Below are positions 195 to 51,640 of a stretch of DNA of 64,000 nt, one piece after another. A model generated the notes under the pieces. The model worked only from the letters and a program-made list of their open reading frames with translations. It was not told the DNA's origin and did not search any database. Both the position numbers and the translations under genes were made by a program. Each line of letters opens with the position of its first letter. Position 1 is the stretch's first letter. The DNA comes from Mizuhopecten yessoensis (Eukaryota). The stretch lies in the NCBI RefSeq assembly GCF_002113885.1, contig NW_018408894.1, positions 439,869 to 503,868 of the forward strand, in the 5' to 3' direction.

Positions 195-966
195 TATGGG
201 GACGGCTATTCTGACGCTCGTTTATTATATGTTCCAACTATAAAAGCTGATAAATTGGTGAGCACTACTCACCTGACTTTAAATGAACAGAATGTTCCGT
301 TGATGATACCCCAGATTACCTGAAAAATGTAAAATAAAGTAGATAAATGAAGCAAAAACTGTAAAAATATAAAACAACTGTGGCAGAATCAGATGGAAAG
401 CAGAATGTGTTATTATTGTACATGTGTACAGCAATTTCAATAAAAACTTTTGAAATATCGTTTTATCAGTGTTTCCGAATAATCGTTGGGGTAAATAAAC
501 AACCTTAGGTATCAATAAATACAATTAAATGTTAATCAATATACAAACTTCGTCGTTCTGCATGTTTTTCTCAAGAGCTTGTCAAAGGGGACCACGCTTG
601 TTCATGGACGCAGACATATTGAGTTTTTCTAAAATTTCAAACGGATCCGGATTTATCTGTTCCGGAAATTTATGGCCACGTTATAAATCTCGTTTAGTAA
701 ATATAATTCAATAAGATTTATTTGAAAGTTCAGAAATACTATATATTAAGAGAAAAAATAATTTTAAAGAAATTGTTACATTATTTCTCCATACACGGAT
801 ATATATATGGAAATCCGCTGGATACGGATATGGAAATCCGTCTCCAGCTTTGCTTTCGTTTCCACCTAGATGTCACATGATTGGCAAAATGGAGACTGGA
901 TGACTTCATAATGCTGTCAGATACATCATAGAGGAAAAATGCTTTTAGACGTTTCTGAAAACGGGA

Positions 967-991
967 ATGATGCAGAATAATTTTTATTTAG
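967..991 (+). CDS. Cys-rich TM gene, putative coding exon 1 (MMQNNFYL-G)
   Basis: ATG at 967 with in-frame stops upstream; phase-1 donor G|GTTGGT at 992 completes a signal peptide with exon 2; ATTGG (CCAAT box) at ~880. Confidence 0.55.
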
Positions 992-3900
992 GTTGGTATC
1001 GTGATGACATTTTCATTCTGTTTGAACGTTTTTGAGTAAACTTGATTTAGTAAATAGTCTAATAGATATTTTTTGGTGATATTTATGTGTAACGTTTTAT
1101 TACAGCAGCCGGTATTGATTTTAATTTTGGTCAAAGGAATGTGTATACAATTGCAGAAAGACTAAAACTAAAAAGAACGTATATTTATTTGGTCTCTACA
1201 GAAGGACTTCATATTTTAACTTAATCTAGTTATTACACTACACTCAGGGATGTCCACTACACATCCCTGCTGTAGTACAAGCACTAATATACAAAATGTA
1301 AGATTATTGCCTAGAGGGACAAATGCTTGCCATACCAGATACATGAAGGGCATATGAATTCCTGCCCCACTGGGGTGTATATGTTACATTTATGCTGGCC
1401 CTTCTGTACTTAAATTGCATGATATGACATGGTGAAAGTGCATTATAAGCTAGGATGTAAATTTACTGATCAAGAATTCGAAATATAGGCAGGTTTCGGA
1501 GGTAACTTGTGGCTAAATTTATATACAAGTATATATTTACAAAAGGGATTCCTCATACATCATATAATATATATCAAGCAAAAATCATGGAATGGGCAAT
1601 TTTCAGCATTTAAATTTTTTATTAATAAATAAAGAGTTTTTTTTATTCAATGTACCTCAGTAAAACAAAAAGAAATATAAATTAGGAGTGCTAGGAGTGC
1701 TGTTTTCAGTTACGAGGGCCCTATATATGGCTCCCTCCTGGATTATCCGTGTATAATATGAGCCAATAACTACATGTATAACAAGGTAATAATCCTGGTT
1801 TGACTGCCTTCAGGAAAACTGCTCAATTAAGTAAATGTGATTGTTTCATTGTTAATAACACAAACCTGTTATTTTTAGAACATCCCTAGAGTTTTATTAT
1901 TTAACAATTAGCATTTTACACTGGTAAGGGACTAAGAAGTTTGGGGGTTACATGTAATTATCTGAAAAGGGCTTGGGAGTAAATTGGGGGTTACAGGAAT
2001 ATCTGTATTGGACATGGGAGTTTGCTGGGGTTTGGGGGTTACAGGTATATATACCTGTAAGATGTTTGGGAGTTTGGGGGTTACAGGTATATACAGTATG
2101 TGCATGTAAGATATGTTTGGGAGTTCGGGGGTTGGGGGTTACAGGTATATACAGTATGTACGTGTACCTGTAAGATGTTTTGGAGTTAGTGGGTTACAGG
2201 GGTATACCTGTAAGATGTTTTAGAGTTTGGGGGTTAAAGGTATATACTTGTAAGATGTTTGGGAGTCGCAGGTATATACCTGTAAGATGTTTGGGAGGTA
2301 TATATATATATACAGGTATATATATATATACCTGTAAGATGTTTGGGAGTTTGAGAGTTATATAGGCCGGTACATCAGTTCCCAGTTTTACAAATAAGCG
2401 TTACAAAAAATAAGGAAAATTTGTTAAGATTTTTTTCAAAATTCAAACAGTTCTGTATCTACAGAAACACTTACAAAAGTTACATGTACTTAAATTAAGG
2501 AACATTCATGAAACTGGTTTACATATAAGGGGTTTACATTGCATTGGTACATCTTTACCTGGGAGTACAGCTACACATGTACATGTGTAGATTTTGAGAT
2601 TACATGTAAGGGGTTTAAAGTATATCTATAATTCAGATAAAACCCATTGTTTTAATTTGCATACACCTGTAATCTGCATTAATAAATTTTCAATTTAGAA
2701 TTATCAACCACGTTTATGATAAAGGTGTACTATATCATGCATGATTATTTAAACTCATGCATGAACTTTTGATCTCTGATGTTATCAGTCAGACATCTGG
2801 ACACTTGACAGTTGTATAACTTTGAACGTATGATTGAGAGTATACATGTAGATATGATAAATAGTACCGTGATTCAAACAGCGATACTAGAGTGCTCACG
2901 TGTTGTAACATTCAAGGAGACTCTTGTATCAGCACTTATGTAAAAAGGATATGACCACTCTTCCTGAAACTTCTCACATGTTAAACTCTTCCTCATTATA
3001 TTTACATTTATGGTTAAAACATTTATGGAAAATAAAGGGTTATCGCTTTGAATCCTTTGCTACAGTTCCTTTTGTTAAAAACATGTTATCTGTTTAAAAA
3101 AATGTACATCTAGGCTGTTACTTAGAAACTGTTATTTTTTTTTGTTGTTTTATGTTTTATATCCTTACCTACTAACAGGTGTGGTGATGGTTGTTACCTG
3201 TCCTTTCACCCTATCTTTTGACAAGTGTGGTGAAATTTTACCTGTCTTATATCTAAACCTTACTTGTTGACATTTGTGGACTGGTGTGGTTATGTTTGTA
3301 ACTTGATTAGTAAAATTTAACTTTACCTGTTACATGTAACAGGTGTAGTAATGGTAACCTGTTGACAGGTGTAGTAATGGTTACCTGTTGACAGGCATAG
3401 TAATGGTTACGACCTGTTGACAGGTGAAGTAATAGTTACCTGTTGACAGGGATAGTAATGGTTACGACCTGTTGACAGGTGAAGTATTGGTTACCTGTTG
3501 ATAGGTGTATTAATGGTAACTTGTTGACAGGTGTAGTAAGGGTTACCTGATGACAGGTGTATTAATATTTACCTGTTGACAGGTTTGGTAATGGTTACCT
3601 ATTGACAGGTATATTATGGTTAGCTATTAAGGTAATGGCTACCTGTTGACAGGTGGGATAATGGTTACCTGTTTACAGGTATATGTATGGTTACCTGTTG
3701 AAAGGTGTATTAATGGTTAACTGTTGACAGGTATAGGAATGGGAACCTGTTGACAGGTTTGGTAATGGTTACCTATTGACAGGTATATTATGGTTAGCTA
3801 TTAACCTTGTTTTTTGTTGACAGGTGTATCATTGGAAACCAGTTGACAGGTGTGGTGATGGTTACCTGTTGAAAGGTGTATTAATGGTTAACTGTTGACA

Positions 3901-6900
3901 GGTGTACTAATGGTAACCTGTTGAGAGGTGTAGTAATGGTAACCTTTTGACAGGTGTAGTAATTGTTACCTGTTGATAGGTGTGGTAATTGTTACCTGTT
4001 GACAGGCATATTAATGGGTACCTGTTGACAGGTGTATCAATGGTAACCTGTTGAGAGGTGTAGTAATGGTAACCTTTTGACAGGTGTATTAAGGTATATA
4101 TATATATACCTTAATACACCTGTCAGCAGGTAACCATTACTACCCCTGTCAACAGGTAATCATTACCACACCTTTCAACAGGTAACCATACATATACCTG
4201 TAAACAGGTAACCATTACCTCACCCGTCAACACGTAACTTACCCTAACCATTACTATACCTGACAACAGGTAACCATTCCCCCACCTCTCAACAGGTACC
4301 CATTAATACACCTGTTGACAGGTGAAGTATTGGTTACCTGTTGATAGGCGTGGTAATGGTTACCTCTTGACATGTATCTAAATGGTTACCTGTTGGCAGG
4401 TGTATTAATATTTACCTGTTGACAGGGGTGGTAATGGTTACCTATTGACAGGTATGGTAATGGTTACCTATTGACAGGTATGGTATTGGTTACCTGTTGA
4501 CAGGTGGATTAATGCTAACCTGTTGACAGGTTTAGTAATGGTTACGGGAACTTACCTGTTGACAGTTGTATTAATGGTTACCGGTTGACAGGGGTATTAA
4601 TGGTTACCTGTTGACAGGTATAGTAATGGTTACGGTAACTTACCTGTTGACGGGTGTGGTAATGGTTACCTGTTGACAGGTGTGGTAATGGTTACCTGTT
4701 GACAGGTGTAGTAATGGTTACCTGTTGACAGGTATAGTAATTGTTACGGTAACTTACCTGTTGACGGGTGTGGGAATGGTTACCTGTTGACAGGTGTGGT
4801 ATTGGTTACCTGTTGACAGGTGTATTAATGGTTACCTGTTGACAGGTCTAGTAATGGTTACCTGTTGACAGGTGTATTAATGGTTACGGTAACTTACCTG
4901 TTGACAGGTCTAGTAATGGTTACCAGCTGTTTGACTTGTGTTTAGCTCACCTGCCCGAAGGGCAAGTGAGCTTATGCCATGGTGCGGCGTCCGTTGTCCG
5001 TCCGTCGTCCGCCCGTCGGTCCGCCCGTCGGTCCGTCGTCTGTCCGTCCGGCGTCAACTTTTTACTTTAAACAACTTCTTCTCAATAACCAAAAGGCCCT
5101 GGGTACTGATATTAGGCCTGAAGCATGCTGGGATGAAGGGCTACAAAGTTTGTTAAAATGACTGACCTTGACCCATTTTCAAGGTCACAGGGGTCAAATA
5201 TGTTAAAATCTTCAAACAACTTCTTCTCAATAACCAAAAGGTCCAGGTTACTTATATTGGGCTTGTAGCATGCTGGGATGAAGGGCTACCAAGTTTGTTC
5301 AAATGAATGACCTTGACCAATTTACAAGGTCAAAGGGGTCGAATGCATAAAACCTTCAAACGACTTCTCAATAACCAAAAGGCCCAGGGTACTAAAATTA
5401 GGCCTGTAGCATGCTGGGATGAAGGACTACCAAGTTTGTTCAAATGAATGACCTTGATCCACTTTCAACCTGATGTCCTTGTACAACATTCAAGGTCACA
5501 GGCATCATATTTTAAAATCTTTTAATAGGTTCTTATGAATCAAACACTGATATTCTTCCTGTAGCTGTTTTTAAGTCCACTTTTAAAATTACAAGTGTGA
5601 GATTAATACCAGGTGAGCGATGCAGGCCCATCGGGCCTCTTGTTTGTCGACAGGTGAAGTAATTAGTCCCCCACTGATTCCTGGGGAAGGGGACTATAGG
5701 TTTGCACACAGTCCGTCCATCCTTCCGTCCATCCTTTAGTCCAGGAAGTTATTTTGTCCGGGACATATCTTCTAGACCATTCCACCTTGAGTAATCAGCC
5801 TTGTTGTTTCCTGTTGACCTTGTTTCCTGTTGACAAGTGTAGTATGGTTAGCTATTAACCTTGTTTTCTGTTGACAGGTGTAGTATGGTTAGCTATTAAT
5901 CTTGTTTTCTGTTGACAGGTGTAGTATGGTTAGCTATTAACCTTGTTTTTTGTTGACAGGTGTAGTATGGTTAGCTATTAACCTTGTTTTCTGTTGACAA
6001 GTGTAGTATGGTTAGCTATTAACCTTGTTTTCTGTTGACAGGTATATTATGGTTAGCTATTAACCTTGTTTTTTGTTGACAGGTGTAGTATGGTTAGCTA
6101 TTAACCTTGTTTTCTGTTGACAGGCATTGTACTACTACTAGGGTGCCTGTACCACAATGTTTACCTCCTGGTAGCAAGTGATGTCAGTCCCTCTCAAGGG
6201 AATGATCTCCGTAGCTTCCCTGTCAGTCACAGAAGTGATTTCCCCTTCCTGTTCGCCGACGTTACCAACTGTACTGGTTCCAACATATCATTGTGCCAGC
6301 CTTGTGATGGAGGAAGCTTTGCCAATCACAGTGAGTTAATCTTCCTTTTTCTTCTACTGTCATATATTTAATTGATTATATATTAGTTTCACGAATAGAC
6401 AACTACAGTAGACAGTTTGTTATAGAACATATCCTAATTTCCCCTTTTATCAATCATATATCAATAATTCACCAGGGATTGTAACATAGCCATTCTAATA
6501 GGTTAAACATTATACATCAAATGTATTAGATTATACCTGGTGTTGTAGTCATTTTGACAATGATGTAGACTACTATAACCTGATTACCTGTTTAATTATG
6601 TCCCCCAAACGGAGTAAACTTCACATGATTAAAAATGGGCGTATGTAGACGTGCATTCAAGTCTTTATTTTCAGATCCTTCCTATAGCAACCACACGGCA
6701 TGGAGGCTTCTGATTGGTTGAAATTAAATATTGGTCAATTTTGCTCAAATTTCATATGTCGGTCTATTATGGCACTACGAACATAGCTCGAGGGTTTGGG
6801 GGGCTTCTGTAATTGTCCCCCATTACAATTAGTACTTGTTTTCTAGGTGTGACTGAATGTGGTTGCTGCCCCAACGAGGCTACAGGTGAATGTTACAACC

Positions 6901-9900
6901 AGAGTTTTTGTGAGGCATGCGCGGAGGGCCATGCCCAAAACCTCACGGGGAAGGAGAGTTGCTTCCCCTGTGATAAGGGACAGTACCAGGACAAGCCAGG
7001 CATGACCACATGTAAACCTTGTGCTAAAGGATATGCCACTAAGTAAGCTTGTATGAATTAAGTCAAAATTCAGTATTCAGTTAAATCAAGTAGAGAAAAA
7101 ATAATTCTTAGAAGCAGATTGATTAATTTGATACTGATTTGGTGAGGATTTTGTTACATTCTTACCGGTATGTATAATAAACATTTGCAGAAACTAAAGA
7201 ATCAGGCCATCAAATATATTTACAGCTTATTGACAATGGTAGACCATAAATTGGGATATTTTTACTGTGGTTATATCTCACTTTCTATGTGAGTTTCGAA
7301 TTTCAATAAACACATGAAGCTTTTACAGCTGTTGAACTCATCTTAAATATTTTCAGCATTGTGTCATAGTTGATCACTACATCTTGTTGCCTGATTTTAT
7401 GCACTAAATACTAGTAGAATATAAAACTCCACCAAATCTAAACCTTCCAGAGTAATCCAGAAAGTTTAGCCAGGATTTAACTGTCAAAGTTGGTGTTGTC
7501 CTGATTATTTAAGATCTAGTGAGTGATTAAGAAGTTGGTTATCATAAGAAATTAATTGCTATTTCCCCACTGATGAATGTACATTCTCAGTAGAAAGCTC
7601 TTTTGCCTTGTTGCAAATATTGTACACACTGGTTTGGTCCTCACCTTACATGTACGTCGGTTAGTGGCAAGTCACATCCTCACCTTACATGTACGTCGGT
7701 TAGTGGCAAGTCATGTCCTCACTTTACATGTACGTCGGTTAGTGGCAAGTCATGTACTCACCTTACTATTGTACGTCGGTTAGTGGCAAGTCGCGTCCTC
7801 ACCTTACATGTACTTCGGTTAGTGGCAAGTCACGTCCTCACCTTTCATGTACTTCGGTTAGTGGCAAGTCACATCCTCACCTTACATGTACGTCGGTTAG
7901 TTGCAAGTCATGTCCTCACCTTACATGTACGCCGGTTAGTGGCAAGTCATGTCCTCACCTTACATGCACGTCGGTTAGTGGCAAGTCATGTCCTCACCTT
8001 ACATGCACGTCGGTTAGTGGCAAGTCATGTCCTCACTTTACATGTACGTCGGTTAGTGGCAAGTCATGTCCTCACCTTACATGTTCTTCGGTTAGTGGCA
8101 AGTCATGTCCTCACCTTACTATTGTACGTCGGTTAGTGGCAAGTCACGTCCTCACCTTACATGTACTTCGGTTAGTGGCAAGTCACATCCTCCCCTTACA
8201 TGTACGTCGGTTAGTGGCAAGTCACGTCCTCGCCTTACATGTACTTCGGTTAGTGGCAAGTCATGTCCCCACCTTACATGTTCTTCGGTTATTGGCAAGT
8301 CATGTCCTCACCTTACTATTGTACGTCGGTTGGTGGCAAGTCACGTCCTCACCTTACATGTACGTCAGTTAGTGGCAAGTCACGTCCTGACCTTTCATGT
8401 ACGTCGGTTAGTGGCAAGTCATGTCCTCACCTTACCTGTACGTCGGTTAGTGGCAAGTCATGTCCTCACCTTACTATTGTACGTCGGTTAGGGGCAAGTC
8501 ACGTCCTCACCTTACATGTACGTCAGTTAGTGGCAAGTCACGTCCTGACCTTACATGTACGTCGGTTAGTGGCAAGTCCCGTCCTGACCTTACATGTACG
8601 TCGGTTAGTGGCAAGTCACGTCCTCCCCTTACATGTACTTCGGTTAGTGGCAAGTCACGTCCTCACCTTACATGTACGTCGGTTTATGGCAAGTCATGTC
8701 CTCACCTTACATGTACGTCGGTTAGTGGCAAGTCACGTCCTCACCTTACATGTACGTCGGTTAGTGGCAAGTCACATCCTCAACTTACAAGTGTGTCGGT
8801 TAGTGGCAAGTGACATCCTCACCTTACATGTATGTCGGTTAGTGGCAAGTCACGTCCTCACCTTACATGTACGTCGGTTAGTGGCAAGTCACGTCCTCAC
8901 CTTACATGTACGTCGGTTAGTGGCAAGTCACGTCCTCACCTTACATGTACGTCGGTTAGTGGCAAGTCACGTCCTCACCTTACATGTACGTCGGTTAGTG
9001 GCAAGTCACGTCCTCACCTTACATGTACGTCGGTTAGTGGCAAGTCACGTCCTCACCTTACATGTACGTCGGTTAGTGGCAAGTCACGTCCTCACCTTAC
9101 ATGTACGTCGGTTAGTGGCAAGTCACGTCCTCACCTTACATGTACGTCGGTTAGTGGCAAGTCACGTCCTCACCTTACATGTACGTCGGTTAGTGGCAAG
9201 TCACGTCCTCACCTTACATGTACGTCGGTTAGTGGCAAGTCACGTCCTCAACTTACATGTACGTCGGCTAGTGGCAAGTCTCGTCCTCACCTTACATGTA
9301 CAATGGTTAGTGGCAAGTCACGTCCTCAACTTTGTTTGCAGCTACTGTACATATGATGGATTTCAATCCACAGACAAAAACCTAATTCATTCCACGACAC
9401 CAATGAACTAGTACCTATGGGTTCCAGTTATCTCTTTTTAGACTTTGCTGTGTTTTCTGAAGTACAGCATGCTATAATTGTGACTGTGTACTTTGGCTTA
9501 TAGGAAGTAAAGTGATAACAACTGCATGTGCACACAAAGTTGTCCCCCCTGTTCTACCTTCATTCTCAATTTCAATTGAATGAAGCTTTTCGCAAGTGTA
9601 TAGTACTGCAAATACTGTGCATAAATTTGCAAGTCAGGGTCCTAAGCTAAAGGTCAAGGTCATTGTTACTATAAATAGAAAATGTTTGTTATCACTCTAC
9701 CTGTCTTCATTTTCCATTAGATATGAATGAAAGCACTCAGTACACAAAAATACCTTGATTGAGTTTCTGAGCCCAAAGTCAGACTGTTACTATAGTGATT
9801 TGAAATATTTGTCATCTCCTCATTATCCTATACAATGTACTAATTTCTTCTGAGATTTTCATGGAAAATTCAAAATATTACGTTTCATGTGTTCAGTACT

Positions 9901-12900
9901 TAAGTAATTCAGATGAGTTAATGTATTCGCAGTGTCATGCGACATATAAAGTCAAGGTCACTGTTACTATAAATAGAAAATGTATCCATGATTGAAATAT
10001 GAAACACTGTGTGACATTCATGTCTTACAGACCATTTATCTGGTTTATTTTTCTGTTTTAGTGTGACGGGCACTGTCAAGTGTTCAGAATGTGGAGCTGG
10101 TGAATTCACCAATGTAACAGGTTCTGCAAAATGTCTGTTGTGTCCATCAGGGAAGGTACAGCAACAAGCTGGTCAAAGCAGTTGCGAGAACTGTACTAAA
10201 GGACAATTTCAGGATGAAAAGGGGAAAATAGACTGTAAACCGTGCACAAATGGAACATTTCAGAACGAAACAGGACAATCAAGTTGTCGTAACTGTTCTC
10301 AAGGTCATTTCCAGGACTTGGAAGGTCAATTGAAGTGTAAGTTGTGTAATAGTGGAGAGTTTCAGGATGAGGAGGGACAATCTGAGTGTAAATTGTGTCC
10401 CAAGGGGAATTACCAGGCAGAGAAGGGACAGAGATTGTGTAACAAATGTGAACCAGGATTCTACCAGAATGAGACTGGTCAAATCAAGTGTCATAAATGT
10501 CCAGGAGGAACATTTCAAGATCAGCCTGGTGTGTCCACCTGTAAGCTGTGTGGAGTTGGAACATACTGTGGGTATGTATACCAGTATACCAATGTCTGGC
10601 ACCTCGGTGTCCATGTGGTAATATAAGGCCTCTGACATTCTGCTACCACTAGCCCTCCACCACTGGTACTTGCTGTAGCTATAGGTCGGTGGTTTTTCTC
10701 CGGGAACTCCAGCATTCCTCCACCACCAAAACCTAGCAGGTCCTTAAATGACCATAGCTTACAATAGGACATAAAACATAAACAAACCAAGTATACCACT
10801 GTAGGCATTTTTTGTCCAAAAAGTCCAGTGTTAACAGTTGTAAGGACCCTTAATTGTCCCACTCCAGGCAAATTTAATACTAGATAACTCCAATGTAGTT
10901 TAAGCTCCCCTTATTTATCATATGAGCTACATATTGCCATCGGTGTTTGTCTGCTTTGTGAGTTAACAATTTTCTTTTTTCAACTTCTTCTTCAGAACAA
11001 CTAGACTAATGGAGTTAAACCTCAGTACAAATATTCCTCATGAGGTCATGCACTGCTAAATGCTCTTACTTTTCGTGCCAATCTGAAAATCAAGATGGAC
11101 ACTCTCGTGTCCGATTGGCTGTGCATTTTCGACTTCTTCTCAAGAAAAGATGAATTTATGATGATTTCTTTTTTGTTTGTTTCATCCTAATTATTTTTTT
11201 GCATTAAAGTTCCACAGAGTTGCGGTTCTTTTTCAGAAATGACAAATCAATTTTGTTGTGAAAAAGGTTTTCAATACCTTGTTACAGTTTTTGGCAGTCA
11301 TCGGATCCTTAATGCTGATTTTTTTCAGTGTGAAACCTAATTAGCGATACTATGGTATAAGTTATGACTAAGTGCCATCGATTCACTATGTGTAGTAAAA
11401 CAACTTTTAACATGAACAAAAACACTTTGTTTTATGGGGTGATTTGTCAAAAAGATGTGAAGTGATCTACATTTGTATGTGTAATCTTATGGAAGAATTA
11501 CATTGTCCTTTTAAAAAATGCAAATCACTGTTAGAAGTGATTGACAAAAAGCCCTTGCTTCTTCACCAAATCACTGTTAGAAGTGATTGACAAAAAGCCC
11601 TTGCTTCTTCACCAAATCACTGTTAGAAGTGATTGACAAAAAGCCCTTGCTTCTTCACCAAATCACTGTTAGAAGTGATTGACAAAAAGCCCTTGCTTCT
11701 TCACCAAATCACTGTTAGAAGTGATTGACAAAAAGCCCTTGCTTCTTCACCAAATCACTGTTAGAAGTGATTGACAAAAAGCCCTTGCTTCTTCACCAAA
11801 TCACTGTTAGAAGTGATTGACAAAAAGCCCTTGCTTCTTCACCAAATCACTGTTAGAAGTGATTGACAAAAAGCCCTTGCTTCTTCACCAAATCACTGTT
11901 AGAAGTGATTGACAAAAAGCCCTTGCTTCTTCACCAAATCACTGTTAGAAGTGATTGACAAAAAGCCCTTGCTTCTTCACCAAATCACTGTTAGAAGTGA
12001 TTGACAAAAAGCCCTTGCTTCTTCACCAAATCACTGTTAGAAGTGATTGACAAAAAGCCCTTGCTTCTTCGCCAAATCACTGTTAGAAGTGATTGACAAA
12101 AAGCCCTTGCTTCTTCGTCAAATCACTGTTACTTTTATTATGTAATAAGCCTTTGGTCATGGAGGAAGTACTTATTCAGTTATAGGATCCCTTGATGTAC
12201 ATCCTATCTAATGGCCAATTTTACAAAGCACCTTTATACAGGTGTACAGTGTTCACTTCGCTTCTGTTTTCAATTTGTCCTTTATTTGCCACTATACATT
12301 AACTGCATGATCCTAATATGTTTATAACAATGGTATTGAAGTTACTTGAACCAGTTCCTGTGTATGTTTGTAACTGGTATGGTATTAAAGTTACTTGAAC
12401 CAGTTCCTGTGTATGTTTGTAACAATGGTATTGAATTAAGTTACTTGAACCAGTTCCTGTGTATATTTGTAACTGGTATGGTATTGAAGTTACTTGAACC
12501 AGTTCCTGTGTATGTTTGTAACAATGGTATTGAAGTTACTTGAACCAGTTCCTGTCTATGTTTGTAACTGGTATGGTATTGAAGTTACTTGAACCAGTTC
12601 CTGTGTATGTTTGTAATTGGCCATGGTATGGTATTGAAGTTACTTGAACCAGTTCCTGTGTATGTTTTTAACTGGTATGGTATTAAAGTTACTTGAACCA
12701 GTTCCTGTGTATGTTTGTAACTGGCCATGGGATGGTATTGAAGTTACTTGAACCAGTTCCTGTGTATGTTTGTAACTGGCCATGGTATGGTATTGAAGTT
12801 ACTTGAACCAGTTCCTGTGTATGTTTGTAACAATGGTATTGAAGTTACTTTAACCAGTTCTTGTGTATGTTTGTAACTGGTATGGTATCGAAGTTACTTG

Positions 12901-15900
12901 AACCAGTTCCCGTGTATGTTTGTAACTGGTATGATATTTAAGTTACTTGCATTAGATCCTATGTATGTTTGTAATTTGTGTGGTATTGAAATTTCTTGCA
13001 TTAGATTGTATGTTTGTTACAATTTTGATAACTTACGTTTGCCTATGTGTTTCAGTTTGGGTTGTTCCCAGTGTGCTGCCTGTCCCCCTGGAACTTTCAG
13101 TGGTAATTCTACCGGGCTACTTACCTGTCCTGTATGTCAAGCAGGTATAACATGTCTGTGTACCATATAAACTTTATTCATTATATATATAGTTGCTTGC
13201 TATATCAAGCAGCTTGAACATTTATATATTGTACTTACAAAGGCTAATAATGGGACCGATCCCTCTGTATTACCCTTTTAATGGAACATTTTCATCATTA
13301 TTACAGCTTGTCTCTTGTATTGACTTTTTGCTCATAGTGCACAGGTTTTGCTGTATGCAGGTTTCACTAAAACACTGTATTATCTATACTTGACAGGACA
13401 TTTTTCTAAAGAAGAGAGCTCCTTCAACTGTTCCAAGTGTGAACCAGGAATGTTTCAGAGTCAGCCAAATAAATCGTCATGTGTATACTGTCCTGTCGGC
13501 AGCATTTGCAAGTATGTTAATTTCGTAATTATTACTATGTTATATATGTGTAAAATATACAATAAAAGCATGACATATACATATACACATTATATCATAT
13601 GAAGTATTATGAATTAAGTTCAATAACTTTAATCTAATCCATGTTTGCAATTTTCAAAAAAAAACATAACAGGGGTTTCATTTGTAGCCAGTAGACCGTA
13701 ACAGTACCCTTATACTGACGATATTTCACTGGTTACTTGTATTGAATATAATTAACTGCCTAATTTGTGTAGGATACAGGTGGCATGAAGTCCTATTGAA
13801 ACTCCTGAACATATATCTTTGAATGGATTAAACACTTCGTTTCCTTCTTGTCAGTTGAAAGTGTAACTTGATTATATGTTGAGGTTATACACTACGAAAC
13901 CAATATGGGTAAATGTATAATTATCTGCTCATTTTGGCATGTACCTTTCAACATAATATATACCTGTACAAAAAAATGAAAGCTAATTAAAATCTTTTGT
14001 GTATTGTTTTAGATTGGTCAGTGTAGATGTTCTGTATTAGGGTTGGTCAGTGTATATGTGCTGTATTAGGGTTGGTCAGTGTAGATGTTCTGTATTAGGG
14101 TTGGTCAGTGTAGGTGTTCTGTATTAGGGTTGGTCAGTGTAGGTGTTCTGTATTAGGGTTGGTCAGTGTAGATGTTCTGTATTAGGGTTGCTTAGTGTAG
14201 ATGTTCTGTATTAGGGTTGGTCAGTGTAGATGTTCTGTATTAGGGTGAATGAGACAAATATTCGTTTCTGTGTTGCAGTGCTCATGGGTGTATAAACTGT
14301 GCATATTGTCCTGAAGGTCAGGAGACTGTTGATGAGGGGAGTACCAACTGTACGCTGTGTGAACCAGGTACTGGCAATATCACTTCAATCTATTTAACTT
14401 CGATGCGAACATGCTACCAACAGCTGTCATGACTTCTTTTAAAAAATATGCAACCAATCAAAATCATGCGATCGAATACAAGCAAGGAACCAAGTACAAA
14501 TATTCAAACTTATCAAACAAAAGCTTGCAATCAGCCAAACCTAGGCTAGGATTGCAACCAATTACAAATATGAAAACAAACACACTCAAACAAACACAGG
14601 CAGGCAACCACATAGTCCCAATCAAGTACAAGTATGCAGCATAACAAGTACCGAGTATACAACCAAAAGCAGGATTGCAACCATGCAAAAAACACTTACA
14701 TGCAGGCAAACACAATTAAGAAACAAGCAAGCACATGCAAGGAAACACAAGCAAGGGACCATTTATTAACAAGCAACCAAACCTACTTGTTACCAAACAC
14801 AAGCATACAACTTAGTACAGACATGCAACAAAGTACCAAACACAAACATACAACTTAGTACAGGCATGAAGCAAAGTACCAAACACAAACATACATTTTA
14901 GTACAGACATGCCACAAAGTACCAAACACAAACTTACAACTTAATACAGCCATGCAACAAAGTACCACACACAAGCATACAACTTAGTACAGACATGCAA
15001 CAAAGTACCAAACACAAACATACAACTTAATACAGACATGCAACAAAGTACCAAACACAAGCATACAACTTAGTACAGACATGCAACAAAGTACCAAACA
15101 CAAGCATCCAACTTAGTACAGACATGCAACAAAATACCAAACACAAACATACAACTTAATACAGACATGCAACAAAGTACCAAACACAAGCATACAACTT
15201 AGTACAGACATGCAACAAAGTACCAAACACAAGCATACAACTTAGTACAGACATTCAACAAAGTACCAAACACAAGCATACAACCTAGTATAGACATGCG
15301 ACAAAGTACCAAGCACAAGCATACAACTTAGTACAGACATGCAACAAAGTACCAAACACAAGCATACAACATAGCACAGACATGCAACAAAGTACAAGAA
15401 ACCAATCATGCATACAGCTCAACACAAGCAAGCAATGTAATCCACCACAAGCATGCTACCAATGACAATCATATAGCCAGTACCAGATATGTACCTCAAG
15501 CAAACACAAGCATACAACTTAGCACAGACATTCAACAAAGTACCAAACACAAACATACAACCTAGTATAGACATGCGACAAAGTACCAAGCAGAAGCATA
15601 CAACTTAGTACAGACATGCAACAAAGTACCAAGCACAAACATATATTTTAGTACAGACATGCAACAAAGTACCAAACACAAGCATACAACTTAGTACAGA
15701 CATGCAACGAAGTACCAAACACAAGCATCCAACTTAGTACAGACATGCCACAAAGTACCAAACACAAGCATAAAACCTAGTACAGACATGCAACAAAGTA
15801 CCATGCACAAGCATACAACTTAGTACAGACATGCAACAAAGTACAAGAAACCAATCATGCATACAGCTCAACACAAGCAAGCAATGTAATCCACCACAAG

Positions 15901-18900
15901 CATGCTACCAATGACAATCATATAACCAGTAACAAATATGTAACTTACCTCAAGCATGCTACCAATGACAATCATATAGCCAGAAACAGATATGTAACTT
16001 ACCTCAAGCATGCTACCAATGACAATTATATAGCCAGTAACAAATATGTAACTTACTTCAAGCATGCTACCAATGACAATCATATAGCCAGTAACAGATA
16101 TGTAACTTACTTCAAGCATGCTACCAATGACAATCATATAGCCAGTAACAGATATGTAACTTACTTCAAGCATGCTACCAATGACAATCATATAGCCAGT
16201 AACAGATATGTAACTTACTTCAAGCATGCTACCAATGACAATCATATAGCCAGTAACAGATATGTAACTTACTTCAAGCATGCTACCAATGACAATCATA
16301 TAGCCAGTAACAGATATGTAACTTACTTCAAGCATGCTACCAATGACAATCATATAGCCAGTAACAGATATGTAACTTACTTCAAGCATGCTACCAATGA
16401 CAATCATATAGCCAGTAACAGATATGTAACTTACTTCAAGCATGCTACCAATGACAATCATATAGCCAGTAACAGATATGTAACTTACTTCAAGCATGCT
16501 ACCAATGACAATCATATAGCCAGTAACAGATATGTACCTCAAGCATGCTACCAATGACAATCATATAGCCAGTAACAGATATGTACCTCAAGCATGCTAC
16601 CAATGACAATCATATAGCCAGTAACAGATATGTACCTCAAGCATGCTACCAATGACAATCATATAGCCAGTAACAGATATGTACCTCAAGCATGCTACCA
16701 ATGACAATCATATAGCCAGTAACAGATATGTACCTCAAGCATGCTTCCAATGACAATCATATAGCCAGTAACAGATTTGTAACTTACTTGTGATTATAAT
16801 TAAAACTCTTGAAAGCAGTACAAGTTTACATTCCAATTGATGTTTTAGAATTAATTCTTCGTTTTCATACAGTGATGATTATTAATCTGATTTTATTTAC
16901 TGACAGAGAAAGAGTTTATAAGTTACCGCCATTCCATTGTTGATAGATATCAGATTCCGACCTGTATTGTTATATTATAACTATTTTCTCTGTTGTTTCA
17001 TTGTTTCAGTATTGGTACAGTAATCACTATATATAGTACATATGTCTTTACTGTAGGTTTCTATAAGGCTGCTCTCAGTGGTGCCAAGTGTATACCCTGT
17101 CGAGATGGATACTACCAGACCACACCAGGTTCCGGTTCCTGCTTTGAGTGTCCATCGGGTTTCTTCTGTCCAGTAAGTGTAGTCCACAGCTGTTTGATGC
17201 TGAAAGTCCAAACACTTCCTATTTCATTCTGATTTCATATATACTCTCTGTTAGCATGGACTCTTCACTTGATTAATTATCTACCTCTATCACTTTTCAA
17301 CAGAGGCATGTGCCTTGTTACTTTGGGAATATAACACACACAAACAGCATGGTTTTGGGAAAAAAGTGATTTTTGCAATGATTTTGGGAAAGCACAGCAG
17401 AAATATCTAGCCTTTATAAGGCCCCAAATTCACCTAAAACAATCACTGTCAATGGATGTTCATTTCCTAGTTTTACCCATGACACGTTTTACCTCGGCCC
17501 TGACACTAGAACAGAAATGTTGTGTGATGTCAGATTTACATACATGTACAGGATTATACAGCTTTTAAAATATACACAGCACTTCAATTTTACAGTACTG
17601 CATTAGTTACACACATCTGTCTGTCCTTTCCCACCTGTCATTGTTACAATGTGACCCTGGATCTTAGTGCAGCCAATTATAGTAGTATAGTGACACTAAA
17701 TGTCTGTACCTTACTGATTGTAGACAAGTTCATGTAGCACAACCAATAAAGTGTTTGTATGTGACATTTTGATGACTAACTAGTATGGTATGTACTCTGT
17801 CTCCTTCATCAGACAAATGACCATTTTAGGGTATATCTCAAAAGTGTAAAATATGTAAAAGTTTGCAATACTTAACATTGATTTCACTACATTATAAACT
17901 TACATACACTTAATATTTAATTGTTATACATGTACTAAATGACAAATCAAACTGACCAATTGGTTTGGCTACATTTTCTTTATAAATATCTGGTCAAAGA
18001 TACATAAGCCCCCTCATCTTGATTCAGAACTGGCCAATTTTGTACACTTCAGAACTGGCCAATTTTGTACACATGCTTCACTGGTGATTTGTCTGATGAA
18101 GGTGACAGAGTACATCATATATCAAAATGTCACACATAAATGCTTCACTGGTTGTGCTAAAGAACTTTTCTACAATCCATACTTGCCAACTGTTTAAGAA
18201 AATAAAATGTACCATACACTATGTTACAATGTTACTTTATTTGAAATAACTGATACAGACATCTCTACATTCCTCATTGTCCATTCCAGATAGCATCAGA
18301 GCCCCCTCTGCGGTGCCCTATCAGTGCTATCTGTCCCAAAGGTAGCGGTCAAGCCGTACCATGTGCAGGACCCTTCTATAAGGCCAATGAGGACAGGACA
18401 GAATGTCGGGCCACTCAGGAGTTCATCGCTGTGGTGGTCGGTTGTAGTGTTGGTTAGTATAACTACACTTACAATTAATTAGTTCTACAGTATTCCAAAA
18501 CCTTAGGCTATGATGTCGGTTAGTATAACTACAAGGCAAGTACACTTACAATTTATTAGTTCTACAGTATTCCAAACCTTAGGCTATGATGTTGGTTAGT
18601 ATAACTACACTTACAATTAATTAGTTCTACAGTATTCCAAACCTTAGGCTATGATGTTGGTTAGTATAACTACACTTACAATTAATTAGTTCTACAGTAT
18701 TCCAAACCTTAGGCTATGATGTCGGTTAGTATAACTACACTTACAATTAATTAGTTCTACAATATTCCAAAACCTTAGGCTATGATGCATTTAATTAAGC
18801 CAATCAATTCGTAGCTGGAATAGTAATATGAAAACATTGATAAAATTTAGATGGGCATATAATACCCTTGACTTCCAGACAATATAATAATCTTCCTTGG

Positions 18901-19119
18901 TTTCTTGTTTATGTTAGTTTACAATTAAAGCAGAGATTATGAAGAAAGGTTACATTTGATATGGATACATAATAAATAATTTTCTTGTTTTTTTCAGTTT
19001 TGCTAGCATTTTCAGGAATAGCCTTATACAAGTTTCGCCAGTATAGAAAGCGACGCAAAACATCTGAGGATAACCAGCTACTGACAACCTCGGGGAGCCA
19101 GATATATTCTGGATGGTGA
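967..19119 (+). CDS. Cysteine-rich (Ephrin_rec_like/GCC2-GCC3-type repeat) type I transmembrane glycoprotein, 543 aa; join(967..991,6124..6330,6847..7042,10062..10571,13056..13144,13397..13511,14279..14367,17057..17172,18290..18452,18998..19119)
   Basis: Manual splicing: all introns GT..AG, phases 1,1,2,2,1,2,1,0,1 join without frameshift, 1632 nt total. Signal peptide MMQNNFYLGIVLLLGCLYHNVYLLVAS; tandem 17-aa CxxCxxGxFQxxxG repeats; TM FIAVVVGCSVVLLAFSGIALY; basic stop-transfer RQYRKRRK; TGA at 19117-19119. Exon 1 is the least certain. Confidence 0.88.
1935..2365 (+). repeat. Degenerate ~36-42-bp minisatellite (gatgtttgggagtttgggggttacaggtatatacctgtaa)
   Basis: Roughly 8-10 degenerate copies; G-runs plus a palindromic core. 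Confidence 0.85.
3170..4930 (+). repeat. ~26-bp minisatellite (ttacctgttgacaggtgtagtaatgg) with an internal inversion at ~4102-4312
   Basis: About 60 diverged copies, directly visible. Confidence 0.95.
4941..5644 (+). mobile_element. Complete non-autonomous Helentron-associated element (HINE/DINE-1-like)
   Basis: TT flanks; 5' subTIR AGCTCACCTG with local inverted repeat GTGAGCT; (GTCC)n-like microsatellite; about 3 core repeats of ~145 bp (5068, 5214, 5358); 3' subTIR CAGGTGAGCG; 3' hairpin AGGCCC-atc-GGGCCT plus CTTGTT. Confidence 0.8.
5661..5790 (+). mobile_element. 5' fragment of a second HINE-like element
   Basis: TAGTCCCC...GGGGACTA inverted repeat followed by a CCGTCCAT microsatellite. 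Confidence 0.55.
5800..6123 (+). repeat. 41-bp minisatellite containing the exon-2 splice acceptor
   Basis: About 8 copies of gtgtagtatggttagctattaaccttgttttctgttgacag. Confidence 0.95.
6124..6330 (+). CDS. Cys-rich TM gene exon 2 (signal-peptide core, first Cys repeat)
   Basis: Acceptor ttttctgttgacag; donor A|gtgagt; GIVLLLGCLYH...CQPCDGGSFANH. Confidence 0.85.
6847..7042 (+). CDS. Cys-rich TM gene exon 3
   Basis: Acceptor ttttctag; donor AA|gtaagc; CEACAEGHAQNLTGKESCFPCDKGQYQDKPG. Confidence 0.92.
7637..9331 (+). repeat. 39-bp minisatellite (gtcctcaccttacatgtacgtcggttagtggcaagtcac), intron 3
   Basis: About 43 copies with occasional 41-bp variants; source of the LHVRRLVASHVLT / TCTSVSGKSRPHL ORFs. 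Confidence 0.97.
10062..10571 (+). CDS. Cys-rich TM gene exon 4 (10 x 17-aa repeats)
   Basis: Acceptor ttctgttttag; donor GG|gtatgt; 510 nt, phase 2-2; diverged CxxCxxGxFQ repeats with conserved Cys/Gly spacing. Confidence 0.95.
10680..10790 (+). mobile_element. SINE 3' body fragment
   Basis: GGTCGGTGGTTTTTCTCCGGGAACTCCAGCATTCCTCCACC core and AAACA-rich tail resemble bivalve tRNA-SINEs; a related core lies at ~54020-54190. Confidence 0.55.
11521..12130 (+). repeat. 46-bp near-perfect minisatellite, intron 4
   Basis: About 13 copies of caaatcactgttagaagtgattgacaaaaagcccttgcttcttcac. Confidence 0.97.
12318..12975 (+). repeat. 44-52-bp minisatellite, intron 4
   Basis: ggtattgaagttacttgaaccagttcctgtgtatgtttgtaac plus a variable spacer, about 13 copies decaying toward exon 5. 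Confidence 0.95.
13056..13144 (+). CDS. Cys-rich TM gene exon 5
   Basis: Acceptor gtgtttcag; donor G|gtataa; LGCSQCAACPPGTFSGNSTGLLTCPVCQA. Confidence 0.9.
13397..13511 (+). CDS. Cys-rich TM gene exon 6
   Basis: Acceptor acttgacag; donor AA|gtatgt; HFSKEESSFNCSKCEPGMFQSQPNKSSCVYCPVGSIC. Confidence 0.9.
14013..14246 (+). repeat. 29-bp minisatellite, intron 6
   Basis: About 8 copies of ttggtcagtgtagatgttctgtattaggg. Confidence 0.95.
14279..14367 (+). CDS. Cys-rich TM gene exon 7 (not in ORF track)
   Basis: Acceptor tttctgtgttgcag; donor G|gtactg; AHGCINCAYCPEGQETVDEGSTNCTLCEP. Confidence 0.9.
14790..15845 (+). repeat. 43-bp AC-rich minisatellite, intron 7
   Basis: aaacacaagcatacaacttagtacagacatgcaacaaagtacc in two blocks separated by a linker that recurs at 15845. 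Confidence 0.95.
15897..16790 (+). repeat. 54/48-bp minisatellite, intron 7
   Basis: caagcatgctaccaatgacaatcatatagccagtaacagatatgt(aactt)acttc; source of the 230-aa minus-strand ORF. Confidence 0.97.
17057..17172 (+). CDS. Cys-rich TM gene exon 8
   Basis: Acceptor ctttactgtag; donor CCA|gtaagt; FYKAALSGAKCIPCRDGYYQTTPGSGSCFECPSGFFCP. Confidence 0.92.
17716..18178. mobile_element. Old MITE or foldback with ~100-bp degenerate inverted arms (intron 8)
   Basis: 17716-17823 is the reverse complement of 18082-18178 (e.g. ccttcatcagacaaat / atttgtctgatgaagg; gtgacattttgat / atcaaaatgtcac). Confidence 0.65.
18290..18452 (+). CDS. Cys-rich TM gene exon 9 (juxtamembrane region and first half of TM; not in ORF track)
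   Basis: Acceptor ccattccag; donor G|gttagt; IASEPPLRCPISAICPKGSGQAVPCAGPFYKANEDRTECRATQEFIAVVVGCSV. Confidence 0.88.
18447..18787 (+). repeat. ~65-bp minisatellite containing the exon-9 splice donor
   Basis: 5 copies; GTTAGT at 18453, 18519, 18595, 18660, 18725. Confidence 0.95.
18998..19119 (+). CDS. Cys-rich TM gene exon 10 (second half of TM and cytoplasmic tail)
   Basis: Acceptor tttcttgtttttttcag; VLLAFSGIALYKFRQYRKRRKTSEDNQLLTTSGSQIYSGW-stop. Confidence 0.88.
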
Positions 19120-38437: not shown

Positions 38438-40212
38438 TAATAATAATAATAATAATAATAATAATATACAGCATTTATATAGCGCCCTATATAATTTGTA
38501 AAATTACTCTAAGGCGCTTTACAACATATGGATAATAGTAATGGTAATAATTGTGAAAACAAACAACAAAGGCTTGCAATCACTTTCATACATTTAACAA
38601 GCAATGTGCACATAATTGAACAAATAAAAGGGTGGTATTTACATGACGTCTTTGCAAAGTTTCTAAAATGCAGACGTGAAGAGGTGAGTTTTTATGTCCC
38701 TCTTGAACTTGGCCAGGGTATTCGACTTCCTAATAGCAGATGGTAAGCTATTCCACAACGTAGCCGAAACCCTCCCAAAGCATCTGTTTCCGTAGGTCAC
38801 AGTACGAGATTTTGGGACACACAACAAAGATTCTGACTCCGACCGCAGTGATCTTGACGGCTGATACAGGGTAACAAGTTCCTGTAGGTACTGAGGAGCT
38901 GTTCCATTCAGTGCCTTGTATGTGTATACCAGAATTTTGTACTGCGACCTGTATCGTACAGGTAACCAGTGCAACGAATAAAGCGCAGGTGTGATGTGCT
39001 CTCTCTTTCGAGTACGAGTAACTAGCCGTGCTGCAGTGTTCTGAACCCTCTGCAGACGACTAGTTAGTTTGTCAGATATACCACAGAGCAGGGCGTTACC
39101 ATAATCCAACCGAGAGGTAACAAGTGAATGCACCAAAATCTTGCATGCATCTGCAGTTATAAACTGCCGAATACAGCCGATGTTTCTGATCTGGTAGTAA
39201 CAGGATTTGGCAATAGCATTCACTTGTTTCTCCATGTTCAGAGAACTGTCAAAGTTAACCCCTAGGTTTTGAACAGCTGGAACAGTCTCAATAGTTCTGG
39301 CACCAACCTTGAGCTGTAGAGCCATTATTTGCTGACACTTTGGGGAAAAGACGATTAGTTCCGTCTTTTCCTGATTAAGTTTAAGCATGTTGGCGTTCAT
39401 CCAGATACTGATATCTGTCAGACAAGCTTCCAGACTTTCTGAGACTGTATTCCAAATGTCCTGTGGTTTTATGACCATGTAAATTAATGTGTCATCAGCA
39501 TAGCAATGATAGCGAAGGCTATGGCGACGACAGATCTCTCCAATCGGTTTGGAGTACATACACTATTTTCGTGGTCCTACCACCGACCCTTGAGGAACCC
39601 CGAAATCTAGTACTTTGTCATGTGAGGTGGGAGATCCGATGGCAACACACTGTCGTCGTTCACTCAGGTATGACTGTATCCAGCATAGTGCGGTATAAGT
39701 CACTCAATAAGAGTATTTCAGACGTTTATAAAGTATGCCATGATCGATGACGTCAAATGCAGCTGACAAGTCCAGCATGACAAGCACCGCTCTGCACTTG
39801 TTATCAATTGCAGAAGCTATATCACTATGTACACGTAAGAGGACCGTCTCAGTAGAGTGTCCCATGCGGTAGGCCGATTGCATGTTATCATGGAGACTGT
39901 TTGCATGGAGATGAACCTCTAAACGCCGGGACACAACCTTCTCCAAGATCTTAGACAGAAAAGGCAGATTTGAAACTGGGCGGTAGTTTTTCAACTCCTC
40001 CTTGTCCATTCCAGGCTTTTTTAACAATGGTCTGACATGTGCCTTCTTGAAACATAATGGAACCTTTGACTCAACCAATGATTTATTCATGATTGCGGTA
40101 ATCAAAGGAAGCAGTGCTTCAAGACATTGCTTTAATAGGTGTGTAGGCAGTGGATCAAGCTCACAGGACTTCGATTGCGAGGTCATGATAATGTTGCGCA
40201 ACTCGTCCTGGG
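38438..40212 (-). mobile_element. 5'-truncated L2-type non-LTR retrotransposon (RT pseudogene)
   Basis: ORFs 40201..39704 and 39559..38663 are in one frame, broken by TGA (39704-6) and TAG (39563-5). RT motifs [45 protein letters not shown]. 3' tail TGTAAAGCGCC..GGCGCTATATAAAT stem-loop plus (TTA)n. Confidence 0.92.
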
Positions 40213-48408: not shown

Positions 48409-50165
48409 ACTCAATACCTGCTCTCAAGAGAAGATAACGCTGCAATACGCAAGGCGGAATAACGATATTGTCAACCTCCTATAGTTCAAACTTGACGACT
48501 TTTCTCAGTAGATATCAGCCTTATCAGTTGATTTACTGCTCTGGAGCCTGTTGTTAGTATTATCATATTCTTGATAGATGCATTCGGTTGATCATTAATT
48601 AATTTATCTAGTTTTTTCAAAGTTACAATCAACGAAGAAGAAAAACAATACTGTTGTCATTATATTCCGATTTTTAACTTCTGGATTTCATCATGCACCA
48701 TTGAGCTTTGTTAACCTTGTCGATGTTGACCTACACATTAACCTTGATCTGACGTAAGCAGGGGACATCATGATAGATACAAAACGTGGTGCAACAGACG
48801 ATCGATTTCTCTGACGGTTCCTGATGTCTTTTGTTTTGCTTTGATTGCTTTAATTACTGTTGTTGTCTCTTCGTATTGAATTTGAGGGTCGCTTTTATAC
48901 TAATACGATAAAACTGTGATATTTACCCTATCTTTCTTGGTGCATGAGCTGCTTCTGTATGGCCAGAATAATAAGTTTAAGTGATGTTTTATATCCCGTG
49001 ATGTTATACATTCCTTATTCAGTATAATTTTTGACAGTATTGATGGAGGCGGTGCGTCATTGTTTTGATTGGTTTTTACAGCTAAAGGCATCAACGACAT
49101 GTGTCAATGTATGTACTGTATACATATGTGTATAGTAAGCGGTAGGTTGGTGAATTTGCCTTCTTGTTATAGCGCAAAATGTACGCCGACGTTAGAGCTT
49201 AACTCATTGAAATGCAATGCCAAAGGCACCCAGAACAACAGTCCACTTAGTCACATGATTGCCATTATTGTAGATACTGGACGTTTAGTAGGGAACTCTA
49301 AGTACTTTATTTTAAAGGAAAGCGTTAGATAACAGAAAGTTTGTTAGGATAAAACAACATAATTTAGATCCCAAATGTTGCAATTGGTGGATCCTATTTA
49401 CTTTGGTCCCTTTGTTGTTCACAAAAGCATACCCACATTTCTACAGGGGGCTACCTCATATAGGTTACCTCATATAGCATAAAACATGGGTAACAGCAGA
49501 TGTATTATACCTCATATAGCATAAAACATGCAATGGGTAACAGCAGATGTATTAACATTTATGTTTGAACATTGTGATTATTAATTAGTCTTTCAATTTT
49601 ACATCTTCATAACAGGTCAAGTTAACATTTTACATCATTTCAATTGCAGTTTTGCCGACAAAAATCATGTTTGTTTATGCTGTTTATTTACTAGAGAGGT
49701 TCCGAGGAAAAGGAACTTGGGATCTATGACCGGTGAAGTTCAGGCGCCTGAGGCCAAACAAGGTGTAATATTTACTCATCTTGTGATTATTGTAGTTTTC
49801 TTATCGAAGTTGTGTTATGTTTTAGCTCATAGTTTGGACAAAACGTGCAGTATACTATACAATGAAATAGAGGTGCTATACTCATAATGTTGATTTGACG
49901 TATTAAGATGGCATATTCAAATGAGTTATTACAACATCTGGACAAGTCGATGGCCCATCCATTCCACGAACCAATGACATAAATAGTATGCAATAATAAA
50001 ACAACCCATTAAGAATGAGACAATGGCACATATCTCTAAGATACATACATTACAGTGAACTTTTGATCTTTTGTAGATACATATCCAAACCAATGTACAC
50101 TCATCCTGCAGTTTAATAAAATATCATCACACATTTGTAAGGCTGTTTTATTATCTCAATAAGTA

Positions 50166-51578
50166 TCAGTTCAGTTTAAAGCCAGAGAACATGCTCCAAC
50201 TGGCATATACGTTAGCACTGCTGTCATGATTTCCAACCCTAACCCAGACCAGATCTCCCTCATCCAGCTGTATCACAACCAAACCACTAGTCGAACCGGA
50301 ATGAGTGCCTCGCGGGTTAACAATGGACCCCATTCTGACGCCATTCTTCACAAGATGGGAATCTAAAAAGTTATTGGCATTTGTAAGTGTGCTCCACGAG
50401 AAGACGTAAGTACCCGGCTGTTGACAGGTGAATGTCCCCGTGAGTGAAGAGTACATATTGCCGTTGTTGGTGATAACATGATCGTAAACGATCTCATGGT
50501 TGACGGCGGGTGCGGTGACAGTGGTTCCCAGAATTGCATGAAAGGCAATTACATTCGTCGATCCTGCAAAGTACGGAAGAGAAAATTCTGTAAAAAAAGC
50601 AAACTTTCCAACAACAAGGTATCAGCCTTAAAGAAGATATCTCCGTTAATAAAATTCAATGACACCCTATTATACCAACACATGACTTTATTGACCCACA
50701 ATCTTCAGAACATTCAAGAATATCTGACATAATTTTATGTACCTAAATATTTGGTTTCTTTGAATTCAACCCTTATACAAAATGGTTCAGTTCCTATTGA
50801 TATAAGTAAATGCAGAAATAATTGCAAATCAAAGATTTATTTTAATAATCATTATAATTTTCAATTGTATATTTTCAAAAAAAAGGTAGCATGATGTCTG
50901 GTCGTCTTTAAACTGATTGGATAGCATAGAAGCATCGGGTATTATTTTGATTAAGAAAAGTCTTGTATTACTGTGTTTACCATCTTTTTTATATCAAAAC
51001 CTCAAACTCCCTATGGACAAATCACGAACTCCAATGTTCGATTGTTGCTTACCGACACGAGTAGAACCCGTGCGTTTAGGAATCGATGGCGCATTCCCGC
51101 GGCGACGCCTAAACAGGCTTTGTATGGTTTTCGTTCGTTTTGACAGTACATCCGGTTTGGTGCTTCTTGGTCCGTCTTCATTCTTCATTAACATGATACT
51201 TGCAGTATTGTTTTGTACAAACTTGTATACTGGTTTTTGTCTACTTTCCGAAACAAACTCATCACTAAAGTGATTATCTGACGGTGTTTTGTGTATGTTA
51301 GTGGTGACATCGGTAGTACGATAAGAAGACTGTTGCTGTAGACGATAGTTGTCAGATTTTAGTTCGTCAATCTCAGATTGCATATCACGCATGCGTCTGA
51401 CATCTTTTGAACGAGAGTCTTCAAGAAGTCGCACACGATTTTCAAGGTCATATATTAAATCTAAAACATGAATACCAACATCCTCTGGGGAACTGGGGAA
51501 GGAGGGCAACAACCTGTCTACATCCCCCAAAGTTATACCGAGTCCGGCCCATAGCATGGCTATCAGGAACACGTCCAT
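50166..51578 (-). CDS. Secreted C1q-domain-containing protein (signal peptide, coiled coil, C-terminal gC1q), 307 aa; complement(join(50166..50563,51053..51578))
   Basis: MDVFLIAMLWAGLGITLG signal peptide; heptad-like LIYDLENRVRLLE..MQSEIDELKSDN; phase-1 intron (G|gtaagc ... tttgcag); gC1q motifs IAFHA, IVYDHVITNNGNMY, TGTFTCQQPGTYVFSW, LVKNG, IQLDEGDLVWVR, FSGFKL. Confidence 0.93.
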
Positions 51579-51597
51579 TTTGTCAGAGAAGTTGGCC

Positions 51598-51640
51598 CCT
51601 GAATGTTTGCCCAGCACAGTGTTATCTACGATATATACCT
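51598..51640 (-). promoter_or_regulatory. Putative TATA box and initiator of the C1qDC gene
   Basis: Minus-strand GTATATAT (51631-51638) lies ~30 nt upstream of ATTCAG (~51599-51604), which is ~25 nt before the ATG. An alternative CTATATAAAG lies at 51733-51742. Confidence 0.4.

Follow-up and report, generated by a model that had tools for sequence, protein, structure and literature searches.

Intron 1 of a gene of Mizuhopecten yessoensis ends in tandem 41-bp copies of its own acceptor, and the main spliced product joins exon 1, at position 991, to the last of these copies, at 6124. We regard it as highly probable that this array, which lies within the window (the whole stretch of 64,000 nucleotides that we analysed, positions 439,869 to 503,868 of contig NW_018408894.1), is a locally amplified 3' end of intron 1 in which the last unit serves as the acceptor, while the upstream copies, here called decoys, are likely tolerated passengers that the spliceosome mostly skips. 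The array is real and ordinary, a further case of a repeated splice site past which the cell seems to splice.

The host gene lies on the forward strand, and a ten-exon model with AG/GT ends gives an unbroken frame of 543 amino acids:

872..991, + strand: exon 1, with the ATG at 967 and the donor after 991
992..6123, + strand: intron 1, 5132 nt, GT..AG
6124..6330, + strand: exon 2, 207 nt
between 6330 and 6847: intron 2, 516 nt, GT..AG, joined 6330-6847 in four of four runs
6847..19119, + strand: exons 3 to 10, with junctions 1 to 3 of the gene seen in contigs and the others placed from AG/GT ends and frame

Exon 4 is present in 20 sequencing runs, all available as assembled contigs, and we examined eight of these, four over positions 400-1900 and four over 6021-7100. 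We took the runs to be spliced cDNA on two grounds: GT..AG introns are missing from their contigs, and the genome has a single copy of exon 2. Setting the bar for a bridged junction at 31 or more letters on both sides, we found the join of 991 to 6124 in four of the eight runs (X1, X5, X6 and X20), which come from four studies (P1, P5, P6 and P12). The contigs of X1 (872-992) and X5 (886-992) run on from exon 1 into exon 2, and those of X6 and X20, recovered from the exon-2 side, have 105 letters of exon 1 ahead of exon 2. The X7 contig has 14 letters only, and no contig of X2, X14 or X17 spans the junction. The donor at 991 and the acceptor at 6123, which the initial annotation had proposed from the letters, are thus confirmed by spliced contigs from four studies. 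No join of exon 1 to a decoy occurs among the contigs, and in the four runs examined from 6021 onward no contig extends over 6021-6121; it is important to note that contigs omit rare forms and that nonsense-mediated decay (NMD) would hide decoy products, so that we do not count this result as evidence and the contigs leave room for rare decoy use.

Exons 3 and 4 of the host gene match the cysteine repeats of Ephrin_rec_like (PF07699). Hydropathy peaks near residue 8, at a hydrophobic start, and near residue 495, which is followed by a short tail; from these peaks we therefore infer a type-I membrane protein, predicted to be cell-surface or receptor-like. A homologue search with exon 4 returned 112 generic cysteine-repeat proteins at 25-43% identity, with no orthologue among them. 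Two smaller observations concern exon 3. One short X20 contig skips this exon (6330 to 10062), which would bring a frame shift and a stop at codon 79, though its 29 loose letters fall below the 31-letter bar and make it too weak as a control of sensitivity. In addition, at the exon-3 acceptor most of the pyrimidine side comes from a dispersed repeat (6794-6841), a stretch that many unrelated contigs match.

The array at the exon-2 acceptor is made up as follows:

5817-6124, + strand: 41-bp minisatellite, 7.5 copies, 94% matches (TRF, period 41)
6083-6123, + strand: last 41-bp unit, with its AG at 6122-6123 the working 3' splice site on the basis of the RNA contigs

Five intact AG|GT decoys, two copies mutated to AA and a last unit that is itself the exon-2 acceptor had been described before, and this description is exact in the sequence. 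Units end in GACAG at 5877, 5918, 5959, 6041, 6082 and 6123; the two that end at 5836 and 6000 close with GACAA. GT stands directly after the five upstream intact units, and GC, the start of exon 2, after the unit that ends at 6123. The pyrimidine tract of every decoy equals that of the real site (12/17, longest run 6). The real acceptor has TTAAC about 20 nt upstream, as do all full 41-bp units but one: the unit that ends at 5918 has TTAAT there. Decoys and real acceptor match from about -41 to +1, and the choice of the last site is therefore not explained by weakness of the upstream ones. A 32-nt pattern of the unit has eight matches in the 988-Mb genome, all eight of them in intron 1, against none for its reversed control: the array is not chance. 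Joining donor 991 to any of the five decoys leads to a stop at codon 21 of 543. The earlier claim that decoy splicing gives a premature stop holds for all five, with the peptide as first written or a one-residue variant of it, and the TGA does lie within the unit, 10 nt before its closing AG.

Intron 1 contains 34 occurrences of TGTTGACAG and 59 of YAG|GT, mostly in a second array with a shorter unit, to which the initial annotation gave little weight and which is accompanied by several other elements:

3339..4924, + strand: 26-bp minisatellite, about 50 units, with degenerate units from about 3170
3783..3823, + strand: stray 41-bp unit within the 26-bp array, 41/41 identical to 6042-6082; a sixth full decoy acceptor, with a stop at codon 16 if used
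4935..5645: dispersed repeat between the two arrays, with an internal 145-bp tandem
5653: AG|GT of a 26-bp unit remnant just after the dispersed repeat
about 5664-5790: second insertion-like stretch

The 26-bp and 41-bp units have their head and the TGTTGACAG core in common, the pyrimidine tract of the 26-bp unit being the shorter (9/17, run 3), and two of the 26-bp units start with GCAT, as exon 2 does. A 22-nt motif of the 26-bp array has six matches here, three on a 202-bp contig (C7070) and none elsewhere in the genome. By comparison, the first 130 nt of the dispersed repeat returned 2360 candidates, and all of the 40 that were scored match at 82-100%. That a dispersed repeat family had captured the acceptor is rejected on the matches of the 32-nt and 22-nt motifs, which lie in intron 1 and, for the 22-nt motif, also on C7070. 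We also considered selection on the AG of the 26-bp array. Among 39 units its two letters deviate 0 times and once, but the same is true of 10 of the 26 positions, and the units were picked by an AG-like anchor, making this comparison uninformative. Within the same array, at about 4088-4315, some eight units are inverted, starting from a (TA)n palindrome, and the unit contains the inverted repeat ACCTGT..ACAGGT.

The exon-2 acceptor is one of several repeated splice sites in this part of the genome. The host gene has a second one on the donor side of exon 9, and the gene that lies head-to-head with it has one at an acceptor:

18452..18787, + strand: exon-9 donor array of the host gene, 65-bp unit; the donor, placed by frame and not from RNA, then four copies of G|GTTAGTATAAC (18518, 18594, 18659 and 18724)
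about 547-620 and 274-319, - strand: first two exons of the head-to-head neighbour, with X14 and X17 contigs joining 547 to about 318
beyond the window, L036:5717-5818 (G000:C5567, about 435,700-435,850), - strand: acceptor repeat of the neighbour, with AG|GT decoys at 5818, 5786 and 5749 and the in-frame site at 5717

The neighbour matches Ribosomal_L28e (PF01778, the Ribosomal L28e/MAK16 family), which we read as MAK16. About 250 nt separate the 5' ends seen of the host gene (872, + strand) and of the neighbour (620, - strand); the X17 contig ends at 620 in template-switch adapter letters, which presumably mark the neighbour's start. The neighbour's three acceptor decoys, copies of 32-37 bp, would in two cases bring in a stop within about 10 codons. 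With the acceptor placed by frame, the head of the unit is the first 9 nt of the exon, and the unit contains ACTTACCTG, the complement of the donor consensus. Judged from the sequence, the GT behind these decoys is simply the start of the exon.

To put a figure on prevalence, we picked 120 exons among 340 listed Pfam matches (Ras, kinase and DEAD; the matches are short and partial, with few taken from any one paralogue cluster). Six of the 120, scored by eye, have a repeat that spans the exon boundary, on the acceptor side in L230 and on the donor side in L187, L206, L241, L242 and L265; arrays that start just inside the intron (L178, L207, L256 and L260) were excluded from this count. Automated splice-site calls picked sites within the arrays at L187, L256 and L260 and missed those of L206, L230, L241 and L265; the prevalence given here is the count by eye. 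In L241 (G000:C3644:133363-135148, - strand) the array behind a kinase exon is a 44-bp donor repeat with 8.5 copies, the first of which has C where the others have the donor G; either the assembly is wrong here or splicing must rely on a later copy.

Sampling 633,785 bases of the host contig, we found 167 arrays (period 15-200, at least three copies) covering 158,790 of them. YAG|GT occurs on one strand or the other in the units of 37 arrays (22%), against 25-26 (+/- 5) expected, a mild enrichment, while a long pyrimidine tract followed by YAG|G occurs in four of the 167, against 3.3 expected. By the same rough automated calls, 5 of 207 boundary 24-mers have a nearby copy, as do 48 of 717 control 24-mers from introns (odds ratio 0.34, p 0.017). 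It would seem, then, that splice sites are amplified no more readily than the rest of intron DNA. The same anatomy is met again in the host gene, in its neighbour and in some 5% of the exons sampled. Such recurrence speaks for a mutational by-product and not for a device belonging to the host gene.

How might such an array have arisen? We suppose that the stretch around the acceptor was duplicated and then expanded by slippage or unequal exchange, and that the shorter 26-bp form expanded as well; the simplest history would have one local array that was later split by dispersed elements. Selection would then keep only those arrangements with an intact copy next to the exon. The head of the 41-bp unit is weakly like the start of exon 2, with agreement at 7 of 14 positions (p 0.12), or with p 0.02 under a transition-weighted score that was picked after looking. 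It can also be aligned with the start of intron 1, at 9 of 14 positions with one gap, and each unit reads GT..AG, which would suit a quite different origin, namely birth of the intron itself by Rogers-type intron gain, in which an AG|GT proto-splice site is copied in tandem, with the arrays as its remnant. This model is discussed for the amphioxus minisatellites considered below, in the part of PMC3087553 available to us. However, the match to the intron start is not significant (p 0.08) and the first 2.2 kb of the intron are without such units, leaving us to regard birth of the intron in this way as scarcely credible.

Returning to local amplification of the acceptor, the question is how the last site would be chosen. 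Exon 2 is likely defined across the exon, because the introns on either side of it are long (5132 and 516 nt), with real exon sequence present behind the last AG. From this AG the exon measures 207 nt, as against 248-453 nt of repeat-led exon from the decoys. Rare decoy products would carry a premature stop and would likely be degraded. In its accessible part, one study states that exon definition favours the sites closest across the exon, but also that of competing human 3' sites the upstream one is preferred, a preference that long flanking introns merely lessen (PMC9225289). Given this human preference, exon definition alone is not proven sufficient, and our account of the choice is likely but incomplete. 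Where a duplicated beta-globin 3' site stood beside 14, 55 or 205 nt of exon, only the distal site was used and splicing was inefficient, according to the portion of PMC5389562 that we could consult. Masking of the decoys by RNA structure was considered and rejected as a general explanation: the pyrimidine tract of the real site is the most open in two of three folding settings, with small margins, and the last site of the neighbour's array is the least open in three of three, so that host and neighbour foldings disagree.

In another reading the decoys are put to use. A share of transcripts would splice to a decoy, meet the stop at codon 21 and be degraded, and longer alleles would then give less productive mRNA. 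Five decoys are intact and the stop would lie far upstream of eight later junctions; the general preference for upstream 3' sites in the human data just cited is in keeping with such use, as is the human ABCA7 intron-18 VNTR, whose length, in the accessible text of PMC6660495, correlates with lower expression and with skipping of exon 19. Yet the main product uses 6123 in four studies, the AG has been lost in two of the seven upstream copies, and the same anatomy is met in many unrelated genes. Poisoning of the transcript by decoy acceptors is, in our estimation, unlikely.

The initial annotation had further raised the possibility that intron 1 is removed stepwise through its AG|GT sites. The most plausible such site is 6041, with a regenerated donor GTATAT and an 82-nt second intron. 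Recursive splicing would yield an identical final mRNA, and the contigs are therefore compatible with it. AG|GT is present at all five decoys, and a crude count of U1 pairing gives 6.5 for the donor regenerated at 6041, which places it among the real donors (5.5-9). On the same crude count, however, the donors regenerated at the other four decoys score 5.0, under all nine real donors; the intron is 5.1 kb long, a decoy step would leave 41-246 nt, and YAG|GT, as seen above, is found in 22% of the minisatellite units sampled. Known recursive splice sites, or ratchet points, resemble the decoys in their AG|GT and pyrimidine tract, but differ in lying in far longer introns with kilobase segments: the available part of PMC8758631 gives introns of more than 10 kb, the longest 3% in flies, and segments of about 2 to more than 60 kb, compared with the at most 246 nt left and the weak donors here. 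The suggestion thus fits poorly and we hold it to be very improbable, in line with the doubts that had been attached to it from the start, that the regenerated donors are weak (four of the five are) and the units too short. The GT behind the 41-bp decoys is likely incidental.

Tandem copies of a splice boundary have been described in amphioxus under the name of 'mirage' minisatellites, which leave splicing intact, and by analogy the 41-bp array would work in the same way (PMC3087553, in the part accessible to us). Its unit contains the splice signal of the gene itself, lined up with the working site; the array is locus-specific, and the regular mRNA comes from the copy adjacent to the exon. 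The consulted portions of the two amphioxus reports (PMC3087553, PMC3902484) name Adh3, the globins BflGb6 and BflGb9, troponin C and PGBD5, and describe locus-specific tandem copies of splice boundaries, of which many, not all, keep the signal, with normal mRNA. The 41-bp unit falls within the size range given there (10-72 bp for Adh3), and acceptor and donor sides both occur, as they do here. Our case differs in being from another animal, in the exon part of the unit, which is barely recognisable, and in having a second, shorter derivative array of about 50 units.

Human genes offer further parallels, again as far as the accessible parts of the reports go. In the 37-bp VNTR of F7 intron 7 the end unit spans the real junction and identical, functional pseudo-sites stay silent (PMC1557585); there the array is on the donor side and the first copy is used, whereas here it is on the acceptor side and the last copy is used. 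The exon-9 donor array of the host gene is the direct analogue of the F7 repeat. CBS 844ins68 likewise duplicates an intron/exon junction, with use of the distal site and a normal mRNA, but as one 68-bp duplication and not an array (PMC2630376). The ABCA7 repeat, also an intronic VNTR beside exons, is a model for effects of length on splicing and expression; these are attributed to the binding of factors and to the skipping of an exon rather than to decoy acceptors (PMC6660495), and no such effect is shown here. We found no report of repeated splice sites of this kind from a mollusc in the literature searched, most subscription papers being outside its scope, and make no claim of absence.

We conclude that the array is probably a side effect, tolerated by the cell, of a genome rich in repeats, and that it is not likely to be a control device. 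Repeated splice sites are frequent in this genome, with 6 of 120 sampled exons and with three cases in a stretch of about 23 kb around the start of the window, and this matters for gene annotation. Furthermore, with six acceptors that agree from -41 to +1, the array offers a clean natural test of how sequence on the exon side picks the last site, which the human data on competing 3' sites leave unsettled. Were a few percent of transcripts to use a decoy, and be removed by NMD, or to step via 6041 with its 82-nt second intron, then the number of units would set the output of the gene; with about one in twenty sampled exons carrying such an array, repeat length would become a genome-wide source of variation in splicing and expression. 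We consider such a working dial decidedly unlikely, though if it is true that unit number tunes mRNA, such arrays would form a large class of expression variants that has stayed hidden.

Several other features of the window deserve mention. Two intronic arrays, at 7637-9332 and 15897-16789, have strong donor-like motifs on the minus strand, and the 39-bp unit has 8- and 9-nt words in common with the end of exon 3 in reverse, a match that may be due to chance. A 29-bp array at 14014-14246 stops 32 nt short of the exon-7 acceptor and loosely resembles it. Farther along, and labelled by reading only, are an apparent C1q-like coiled-coil gene at about 50150-51680 (- strand), with a decayed copy near 52170-52400, and two apparent reverse-transcriptase (LINE-like) fragments at 38600-40200 (- strand) and 61200-62300 (+ strand).
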